A program made the position numbers and the translations under genes. Positions 6,001 to 9,000 of a DNA stretch of 64,000 nt are shown one piece after another. Below the pieces are notes generated by a model, which saw nothing but the letters and a program-made list of their open reading frames with translations, had not been told where the DNA came from and made no database searches. The DNA lies in assembly GCA_040954595.2 (NCBI GenBank), contig CM082578.2, positions 2,152,831 to 2,216,830 of the forward strand, given 5' to 3'. Position 1 is the stretch's first letter, and the number at the start of each line of letters is the position of its first letter. Origin of the DNA: Balanoglossus misakiensis. Lineage: Eukaryota; Animalia; Hemichordata.

Positions 6001-9000
6001 CAGTCAAGTTATTTATCATATAGTTATATTAAATAATTGATATTAAATAATCATTAGTGAGATCTATGGAATCTCACATATTTTAATGCAGAATGACTTG
6101 ATTTCCATATGCAGGTTATGAGGCGCCATCAACGCAGGCAATCACTGTGACTGAAAGAAAACCAACGACAGATTCAGATAAAGAATTTACAACATCTGAA
6201 ACTACTAGTGCACCACTTTCAACTAAAATATCAACAACAAAACCAGTGACACCTTCTCATGATGTATCAACAGGTAATTATACTGTGTATTCGTATAATT
6301 CGTATTCATATCAGTATTTGTCCTTTTATTGCCACAATTTAAGAAAGGAATATATTTTGTGGCAGAGAAATGGTAAATACTTAATACCGTATACCAGTAT
6401 ATCTAATTTTTTACATTGGCAATATGGAGCAAGAAACATAGCATAGCGCTAGTCAAGTCTTGCCCCATTGTCACATATATAGTAATATACATTGCAATTA
6501 CTGAACAATATTATGGCTTCTGCTGAATGTGTGTGTGTACCGATAAACTGTGCATATTGACTGGCAGTGAGGGCAACAGCATACATTTGTTTCCCTAAGG
6601 GACTGTGAGTCAACCCAGAACAGTCTGTTTTTAGAGGCTGAAGGCCGATGGAAACAGATTGTTTTGGGGGTAATTTGCATTCCCGAGGGGACACAAACGT
6701 ATGCTGTTATCCGAACATGGCTAGTCGATATGTGTTTCAGTATCAGAAAGCAGCACAAATCAGGAAATTTCTCTGCTGTACATCATCAATTGGTCTTCAT
6801 TGTAGATGATATATCACCACTGTACAAGGTCCCATACCTGTAAATAAATGATAAAAGCTTACACACAAACACATTTCACCAGATTAGAAAATGTACCACA
6901 CAAACCCATTTTAGGATATTAACTCTTCTCAAAGAATATCTTGCTTGTGTTGTTGATTTTACAGTCAGTAGAGATTGTGGAACCTTTGAGACTTTTGTAA
7001 ACGCAACTTGTGAGAAGTACATTGAGACAACAACTGATGGTACCTGTTCATTTGGAACATTCTACACAAGTATGGTTGCTGGTATGGCCAATTTTCAAGA
7101 TTCACATGTAAGTATAAAGTTAGTTCTTGAAAGTCTATGTACCGCTAAATGTTTTGCTCCAGTGTCAATACTGACCAGATTGTCTCCAATTTCTCATTGT
7201 GATTTGTAACATTGTTATGAATGATTTTATTTTGTCTTGTTTTGTGTGTTGCACTGTATTTTTTTAAATTTCTCACCCAAGATTGATATAATCACTAAAT
7301 GTACTTGAAAAAAACTGCATACTGTAGTATTTCCAGTGTTGTCTAAAGGAGTTTTTTGGTTTGTGTAATTGCAGGTTTGCGGGCAATGCCTGAATGTGAT
7401 TGGTTCAAATGATGCATCTGTAGTTGTCCGGGTAACAGACATGTGCATGTACCTGTACTGCATGAGTGATGAAGATGGTCTGGTTCTAAGTCAGGATGCT
7501 TACAACATCTTGTCAGATGGTGAAAGTCCTTCATCTCTTCTTGTATCCTACTCAGTTGTTGCCTGTCCTGAGGATGTCTCTATCAAGTTCAAGGTTTGTG
7601 AAACAACACAATTATTAACTAATTTATATACCCTTGTCTTTAATTGTCACATCTTGGCAAACTTGTTTGAAACCTCCCTAGCCATTTTTTTAAGTATTTG
7701 TAAGATTGAAGTTGAAATTGTCAAGAGTATTCATCTGTTTCTTTACTGGAAGTTTAGATCTCCTGGAAATCAAACCAGTCTCAACTGATTTGGACAAGGG
7801 AAGATCCAGTGGGGACTAGGTCATTGACAATGATTTGTTGCAAATACTGTAAAACGGGAAATTTTCACGCCAGGAAATTTTCGCAATATCAAAAGAGGCA
7901 ACTGTTACGCGAGGATTAATTTTGGCGTTCTTGTATTTCACTAACTGCATCGTTAAATCTGAAAAACATTTCACACGACATTTATTTTCACGTCTCTTTT
8001 AGATCTTGCGTATTTTGCGAAAATTTATGCTCGCGAAAATAACCCATTTTACAGTAAGTCTTGCTCTAAATTTCAAAGTATTAGGACCAACCAGGGACTG
8101 TGTTGTTCATCTTTTTAGTGTACTGCATATTGATTGATTGATTTGTTTATTTAGTTTGCAGAGAGCATTTCTGCATCATTCAGCTTATTAATATTGGATC
8201 ATCGTTACCCTGTCACCACTGTGGAAGTCCACACAACTGGTCCCTGGATTACTCTAGACAGACTCAGTGATAACTTATTTGAACCACCCATTGGTTCTGG
8301 TGATATACAAGCCCCTCTCAATGTCAAGGTCTATTCGGTGTCTGGTAAAATTAACTACAGGGTTACAGACTTTGAGTTTGATGAGATTATTGACACCTCC
8401 AAGCAATTTCGACATTGTGAGGATGATGAGCTTGAAGTTACTACACTTCCAGACTTTGGAATAGTTACAACAATTGAGAGTACGCTTGAAGGTAAGATGG
8501 TTTCATTTTATACAATATGTAATTAGTTTACTGTATAACATAGGTCAATGTTGCTGATGATTTCAATGGAGTGTAGCTGAATTTGTTACATTAGTTGTGA
8601 TATCTGATATTGTGTTTTGCACACCAATATCTGGTACACTCTTATGCAAAATTTTCGCAAGAGGAAATGTTCATGATATCAAATGTGGCAACTGTTACGT
8701 GGCGATTAATTTTCACGTTCTGGTATTTCACTGCATCGTTATCTCTGAAAACCATAAGCGACTTTTATTTTCACCAGTAAATTTATCGTTCGTGAAAATT
8801 TCCTATTTTACTGTATTTTGAATAAGAAATCTCAACACCCTCATAAACAATTGCATTAAAGAAAGCAATAGAATAATAACACAATATCATTTGAATCACA
8901 CACCGGGATGAGAATACCTTGAAATTGTCTCCTGCCAGGAACATTGATTCAATACTGTTCATGTTAGTGGAGAACAATATAACATTAGATTTCCTTGTTC

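Follow-up and report, generated by a model that had tools for sequence, protein, structure and literature searches.

The window, as we call the whole 64,000-nucleotide stretch of Balanoglossus misakiensis DNA analyzed here, covers only the middle of a large gene, both ends of which fall beyond the modeled part. The 30 exons modeled (6238 nt in all; Table 1) were collinear with residues 723–3916 of the Saccoglossus protein XP_077862127.1 (P0001; 4825 aa). Exons A, B, and C of this gene, which all have AG/GT ends and contain no stops, encode an expansin-type module interrupted by two introns. The expansin portion of exon C finishes near position 8418, and the rest of the exon is the start of a stalk. 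These data bore out the original prediction that three spliced exons encode both expansin domains, with the motifs in the order given there. The module enters and leaves in phase 1 (series 1-0-0-1) and is thus a symmetrical cassette, compatible with the mostly phase-1 junctions of the host gene.

Table 1. Features of the window and their coordinates.
Feature	Position	Strand	Description
Host gene, 30 modeled exons	474..25047	+	sushi, EGF-Ca, sushi, insert, HYR, GCC (ephrin-receptor-like), EGF repeats
Split sushi domain, N-terminal three quarters, then first Thr run	4818..4997	+	Pfam Sushi positions 1-46 of 56
Possible additional Thr-rich stalk exon	5207..5506	+	AG/GT, 300 nt, phase 1 to 1; recognized by eye; outside the scripted model
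Thr/Ser-rich stalk exon preceding the module	6115..6273	+	
Module exon A	6965..7107	+	N-terminal Cys, first strand of domain 1, first conserved Cys; phase 1 to 0
Module exon B	7375..7593	+	remainder of the double-psi beta-barrel (domain 1) and linker; phase 0 to 0
Module exon C	8155..8491	+	domain 2 (CBM63-like sandwich) and the beginning of the second stalk; phase 0 to 1
Thr/Ser-rich stalk exon following the module	9039..9650	+	
Short Thr/Pro-rich stalk exon	10154..10255	+	
Unnamed Cys-flanked domain in the insert	10680..12440	+	exons 10680-10915 and 12179-12440
RIRR basic motif and end of the split sushi domain (last strand, last Cys)	12909..13007	+	one exon
DUF7869 ORF	29424-30209		
Homing-endonuclease zinc loop ORF	32754-33299		
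Myb/SANT ORF	36628-37455	-	
zf-AD ORF	38901-39326		
DUF6589 ORF	44736-45808		
Helicase C domain ORF	47655-48812	-	
Reverse transcriptase ORFs	54939-56868, 58360-60129		

Positions 25100–64000 of the window contain transposon-like ORFs. In this region, ORFs 26576–27106 and 27478–28452 (minus strand) have a long identical stretch in common and represent a local duplication next to the DUF7869 ORF. A tandem repeat of ~57 bases, open in two frames, occupies 46555–47739, a LINE-like element has its ends duplicated at 50345–50725 and 60133–60879, and a repeated segment is found in near-identical form at 51636–51953 and 52707–53018.

Pfam search of P0001 showed three CUB domains, eight sushi domains, HYR in two stretches, GCC, LamG, and numerous EGF domains. 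Inspection by eye indicated a hydrophobic stretch close to the C-terminus. SVEP1-type proteins dominated the best 120 of 683 matches in the orthologue search, and no Uif sequence was among these 120; SVEP1 was rejected as the identity of the host, as the orthologue contains CUB domains and lacks a VWA domain. Judged by its domain content, the host is likely a sushi/EGF/HYR receptor resembling Uninflatable (Uif) of Drosophila. The Saccoglossus protein carries three expansin modules, which scored 83–91 bits against a profile of microbial expansins. Identity of the window module to these was 41–44%, compared with approximately 45–50% in the flanking host parts.

The module lies in an insert that splits a sushi domain. 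The N-terminal part of this domain scored 34.0 bits on its own, with 42 of 54 profile positions aligned; with the downstream strand the score rose to 42.7 bits and all 54 positions were aligned. The insert within the sushi domain has a length of at least 731 residues in the window and 1819 in Saccoglossus, with the same split behavior in both. The stalks contained 44% and 34% Ser plus Thr, and the description of an intron-bearing module in a sushi/EGF protein of a deuterostome, with Thr-rich stalks on either side, was found to be accurate. A basic motif is conserved as RIRR in the window and RKRR in Saccoglossus, which we take to be a predicted furin-type site. Insert exons 10680–10915 and 12179–12440 showed 41% and 51% identity to residues 2809–2964 of P0001. 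The Cys-flanked domain that they encode, of ~150 residues, occurs twice in the host (10680–12440 and 14850–16171, plus strand), and in Saccoglossus the copy in the insert is a distant relative of the domain preceding the GCC repeats (internal repeat, E 3e-8). It had no convincing Pfam family and no usable Atlas match in a search with one exon.

Expansins are used by plants and bacteria to loosen cellulose. We compared the spliced module with a microbial-only profile of 62 expansins, comprising 59 of 74 fetched loci, each kept if non-duplicate with E < 1e-20 and at least 150 query residues matched, and three proteins (P0127–P0129). The module scored 95 bits (E 1.7e-31) over profile positions 19–203 of 205, a match favored by the gathering of the microbial rows with an acorn-worm query, the metagenome rows being presumed bacterial. 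Among the control scores, the best of 1000 shuffles of the module (664 reported) reached 9.4 bits, the reversed module −1.7 bits, and no domain of 118 other sushi proteins exceeded 2.9 bits; a chance match was rejected. The HHalign probability for the module was 99.9%.

Searches with single exons gave weaker signals. Exon A had no match to any Pfam family, and exon B matched DPBB_1 with an E of 9e-4, under the curated cut-off; in the Saccoglossus orthologue this family stood above it (31 bits versus 28.8). Expansins were the top three of five PDB matches of exon C (best E 0.009), and Pfam Expansin_C matched neither exon C nor the Saccoglossus orthologue. Exon B matched three proteins among 1.84 billion representatives, all of them hemichordate and with P0001 as the best match, and exon C matched none among proteins of 197–2000 aa, a size range that leaves out full-length receptors. 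The profile and the structural models showed the features of the expansin class, namely a double-psi beta-barrel in domain 1 directly followed by a CBM63-type domain 2. A single-domain GH45/Barwin protein was rejected because both domains match. At the level of sequence, it is confirmed that the window holds a complete two-domain expansin-type module.

Structural prediction was performed with two stand-ins, the two-domain module 3 of Saccoglossus and exon C of the window alone. The AlphaFold2 model of the Saccoglossus module (pLDDT 84.8; 55-row alignment) had TM scores of 0.83 to 9ms5 and 0.78 to EXLX1, and its top 12 Foldseek matches were expansin or group-1 allergen chains. The model of exon C (pLDDT 87.1; 59-row alignment) retrieved expansin-type domain 2 structures as its top six matches in a wide structure search (Z 9.3–7.7; rmsd 2.3–3.5; 79–87 aligned residues), followed by unrelated sandwiches with Z of at most 5.6. 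In Foldseek the same model had no match at E 0.001 or better, and its first rows were all expansin-type domain 2. Both folding alignments are made of expansins, and the fold match is partly circular; these results therefore confirm compatibility more than they provide independent proof. With this reading, the DPBB/CBM63 match expected from the original prediction was found, by HHalign for the window module and by Foldseek for Saccoglossus module 3.

Next, we focused on the residues of the active site and the binding platform, with numbering checked on chain 2bh0. In EXLX1, Asp82 is required for loosening with Thr12 as its partner, and the platform consists of Trp125, Trp126, and Tyr157 (PMC5072189, available part). 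We compared the 62 microbial rows with four receptor modules, one from the window and three from Saccoglossus; two of the four are 85% identical, and they therefore represent approximately three independent lines. Of the 62 microbial rows, 61 had Asp at the position of Asp82, where all four receptor modules had Val (window codon 7483–7485), as had been reported for the Asp of the LDLS/HFD motif. The position of Thr12 was Thr in 59 microbial rows and Glu in each receptor module (window codon 7012–7014). Trp126 was aromatic in all microbial rows and Tyr157 in 59 of them, and neither was aromatic in any receptor module. Platform positions 125, 126, and 157 of the window module are Ser, a gap, and Asp (8269–8271), respectively, and one Saccoglossus module has Phe in the 125 column with a gap alongside. 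The equivalent of Asp71 (window 7438–7440) and seven Cys columns were retained in all four receptor modules.

Because the equivalents of Asp82, Thr12, Trp126, and Tyr157 are lost, wall loosening and EXLX1-type cellulose binding by the receptor module appear unlikely. The glycan-binding function assigned to the module by the original prediction, taken in the EXLX1 sense, was not supported, as the equivalents of Trp126 and Tyr157 were non-aromatic in all four modules. Of 202 columns, 64 were invariant among the four modules, 28 of which are common to most microbes. As far as residues can tell, the fold of the module is kept while both known working surfaces have changed, and the module is expansin-derived and no functional EXLX member.

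Loss of every known functional residue but Asp71 could also be explained by a neutral spacer, that is, a module that came with a mucin cassette and was kept as a stable, protease-resistant bead without a specific ligand. The varying copy number (one in the window versus three in Saccoglossus), the change of amino acid in seven of the nine module variant codons among those listed, and the skipping of the module in the older Saccoglossus model P0026 are consistent with such a spacer. However, 17 columns invariant in the four modules, including Glu16, Tyr33, Asp81, Lys178, and Tyr188, were found in less than 10% of the microbial rows. In addition, the identity of the module to its orthologue is near that of the domains proper to the host. 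We consider a neutral spacer unlikely in view of these columns and identities.

The replacement of Thr12 by Glu and that of Asp82 by Val co-occurred in all four modules, and Asp71 was retained. Thr12 and Asp82 are hydrogen-bonded neighbors in EXLX1 (PMC5072189, available part), and the Glu at the Thr12 position might replace the carboxylate lost at Asp82 on the neighboring strand, with the module acting at the body surface to loosen or remodel a glycan of mucus, algae, or microbes. Two MAFFT alignments and a global HHalign alignment agreed on the register of this Glu; it is less sure in that local alignments begin past its position. Moreover, about one column in three is invariant regardless, and the domain-2 platform needed by EXLX1 for binding is gone, so that such an acid-relocated enzyme is doubtful. 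Presumably, one FA58C domain of Uif lies in the same slot as the expansin insert. In a wider proposal, one repeat of a domesticated microbial expansin family fills a slot of an ancient apical receptor that holds another sugar-binding domain in insects and, with its active acid moved from Asp82 to the Glu at the Thr12 position, works as an "acid-swap" expansin on mucus or microbial glycans of the feeding surface; taken as a whole, this must be regarded as just as doubtful.

We then examined the physical linkage and integrity of the gene. DNA contigs from one other sample ran continuously from exon B through exon C to the next stalk exon, crossing the introns, and the module is therefore physically part of acorn-worm DNA. 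In another haplotype, all seven indels among those listed fell in introns. Variant codons in the module comprised at least seven amino-acid-changing and at least two silent ones (low-depth contigs, 40 of 69 rows), and those in the host exons comprised at least two changing and at least three silent ones (low-depth contigs, 40 of 126 rows); purifying selection was not clearly shown by the module counts. The older Saccoglossus model P0026 (3097 aa) keeps only the first Thr run of the insert, with residues 1268–2966 and all three modules skipped, and the cassette may accordingly be alternative or rare. From the conserved collinear exons, the compatible phases, and the current RefSeq model, we infer that the module exons are likely spliced into the receptor transcript, and the module is very probably a real part of the protein.

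Two small lesions were found in the host gene downstream of the module. The HYR exon lacks a GT donor after 13923 (13923–13924, plus strand), where homology and phase require one; this looks like the loss of one base, at a site outside the span of the contigs of the other sample. A short GT repeat near 21745 is the site of a frameshift in EGF exon 21692–21826 (plus strand), whose halves match the orthologue in different frames. The other 28 of the 30 modeled exons are clean, and there is no substitution-derived stop. Long-read assemblies often give losses of one or two bases, for example in repeats. Both lesions look like losses of this kind; assembly error is the preferred reading, and a broken allele is possible. 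No later host exon, LamG included, was found within 25.1–64 kb, the last 39 kb of the window. If the module were unexpressed in this organism, as in a broken allele, a pseudogene, or a skipped cassette, the two lesions, the lack of later exons in this region rich in transposon-like ORFs, and the excess of changing over silent variants among the module variants listed would be explained. Against the clean exons, the nature of the lesions (one of which lies in the GT repeat), the intact module exons, and their inclusion in the current model of the orthologue, we judge this explanation improbable.

To elucidate the origin of the module, we compared it with stand-alone expansins, which were found as two-repeat proteins in three acorn-worm genera: Saccoglossus (APU50764.1 and XP_006812919.2), Ptychodera (XP_070533744.1), and Glandiceps (LOC144434331). 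The GenBank name of APU50764.1, "expansin-yoaj protein-like protein 170", suggests that somebody had already noted the stand-alone gene. The second repeat of Saccoglossus matched solved expansins with an E of 9e-33. First repeats also lacked Asp82, with Asn, Lys, and Asn at this position. Second repeats retained Thr12, Trp126, and an aromatic residue at 157 in three of three and Asp82 in two of three. Among the stand-alone proteins, P0004 has Asn at the position of Asp82, and the near-identical P0005 has Asp. From these residues, the second repeats of the stand-alone proteins P0002, P0004, P0005, and P0126 may be regarded as candidate working animal expansins.

A phylogenetic tree was constructed from 72 rows (10 animal and 62 microbial, without plant, fungal, or protist expansins) with a midpoint root only. 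The receptor modules joined the three first repeats (support 99/89), and all 10 animal rows and one long bacterial row were located on one side of a branch with support of 100/99. AU tests on 34 rows, including 24 of the 62 microbial rows, rejected a topology in which the receptor modules grouped with the three microbial rows most similar to them (p-AU 0.017). They did not reject a topology that joins these modules to the second repeats (p 0.24), nor a clade of the six stand-alone repeats that leaves the modules out (p 0.27). A single animal family is thus supported by the tree and AU results, which only favor the first repeat as the source of the receptor modules. A phylogeny with microbial expansins had been proposed along with the original prediction, and in it the receptor modules fell with the stand-alone acorn-worm repeats, outside the sampled microbes.

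Direct bacterial transfer into the receptor, separate from the stand-alone expansins, would agree with the 29% identity of the module to its best microbial row, which is close to the 28–34% identity to the stand-alone repeats, and the long receptor branch (1.83) makes its placement unsure. The tree and the AU test nevertheless oppose direct transfer, and this origin, contamination included, is very improbable. Contamination itself was excluded by the spliceosomal introns, the host-like phases, the orthologue in a second species, and the contigs linking module and stalk. In the Atlas, the top cluster for a stand-alone repeat was mostly fungal and tied at 0.95 with a myxobacterial cluster. Expansins of marine Aquimarina (L024, L026, L027, L031, and L037) were found in ORFs of 360–500 residues, probably fused to another domain.

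Because the animal record is patchy, transfer from microbes is the likely source of the acorn-worm expansins, and with good confidence we place the immediate origin of the receptor module in the resident acorn-worm expansin family. One old gain from microbes would have given rise to the stand-alone genes, and one repeat, most likely the first, would then have been exon-shuffled into the receptor. The idea of horizontal acquisition followed by shuffling was therefore right in that microbial origin is likely and needed revision in that the route appears indirect, the receptor modules grouping with the stand-alone genes. Of the original interpretation, the module, introns, stalks, host, and Val stood, glycan binding in the EXLX1 sense was not supported, acquisition was likely indirect, and inclusion in the transcript was inferred.

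Taken together, we favor, with moderate confidence, a model in which the expansin-fold module is spliced into an Uninflatable-like receptor and forms a non-loosening binding head on mucin-like stalks. Uif is an apical single-pass protein (PMC12867482, available part), and the acorn-worm receptor would likewise sit on the apical surface. The third and fourth Cys of the sushi domain would bracket the insert, which would protrude as a loop, with the Thr-rich stretches as O-glycosylated spacers raising the module from the membrane. Cleavage at the predicted furin-type site, close to the end of this loop, would open it, leaving the chains joined by the sushi disulfide. Locked by disulfides, the module would use a remodeled face of domain 1 (Glu16, Tyr32/33, and Asp69 in module numbering) and not the cellulose platform to bind a mucus or glycocalyx partner. 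That specific binding is the role of the module has, in our estimate, an even chance, and the putative ligand, a non-cellulose glycan or a glycoprotein, is a guess.

These results have several implications. A few metazoan expansins, in a tunicate and bivalves, have been called unconfirmed and possibly contaminant (10.1101/637728, available part); for acorn worms, this question is settled by the in-frame, intron-bearing module in orthologous receptors of two animals. The module also illustrates compactly how a likely foreign gene became a shuffled exon cassette in a native multidomain protein of an animal. Its kept fold and lost loosening and cellulose-binding residues provide a natural test of what else an expansin surface binds, and the Thr12/Asp82 swap bears on the still debated mechanism of expansins. 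Candidate genuine animal expansins are found in the second repeats of the stand-alone proteins, which retain the key residues.

Among the accessible papers and supplements covered, none describes an expansin module within an animal receptor. The available parts of PMC3340373, PMC13178913, PMC5072189, PMC6331135, PMC12867482, PMC13342648, and 10.1101/637728 contain no such module. The word "expansin" is absent from the main text and two spreadsheets of the hemichordate genome paper (PMC4729200; main supplement not covered), and its mention in the available part of PMC6006793 concerns nematodes.

Among known systems, the bacterial EXLX proteins, represented by Bacillus subtilis EXLX1/YoaJ (2bh0 and 3d30), share with the module the order of domains 1 and 2, a length of ~205 residues, the Cys pattern, Asp71, the HR(Y)P and R...N.F motifs, and the predicted fold (TM about 0.8). 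Other bacterial relatives include those of Streptomyces (9ms5), Clavibacter (4jcw), Myxococcota, and Chloroflexota. Unlike these proteins, the window module is internal to an animal receptor, contains two introns, shows less than 33% identity to any sampled microbial row, and, with the other receptor modules, carries Val for Asp82 and Glu for Thr12 and has lost Trp126 and Tyr157. The stand-alone acorn-worm expansins are nearest in the tree, have the terminal Cys in common with the module, and lack Asp82 in their first repeats; they differ in their small size, two-repeat structure, and hydrophobic N-terminus, and most key residues are kept in their second repeats, which may still act as expansins. 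Expansins also act as modules in microbial fusions with CBM1, CBM2, CBM32, and GH5, all carbohydrate-active partners, and expansin-like genes occur in animals such as nematodes, whose proteins have a reversed domain order (10.1101/637728, available part); the main text of that survey names no hemichordate. The host itself resembles Drosophila Uif in the three CUB, eight sushi, HYR, LamG, and EGF domains of the Saccoglossus orthologue (PMC3340373, available part). Uif has an N-terminal C-type lectin domain and three HYR domains; Pfam searches of P0001 reported two HYR stretches and no lectin domain, and its N-terminus is lectin-like by eye. Uif has two FA58C domains and P0001 has none (Pfam, E 0.1), and we therefore call the acorn-worm receptor "Uninflatable-like".
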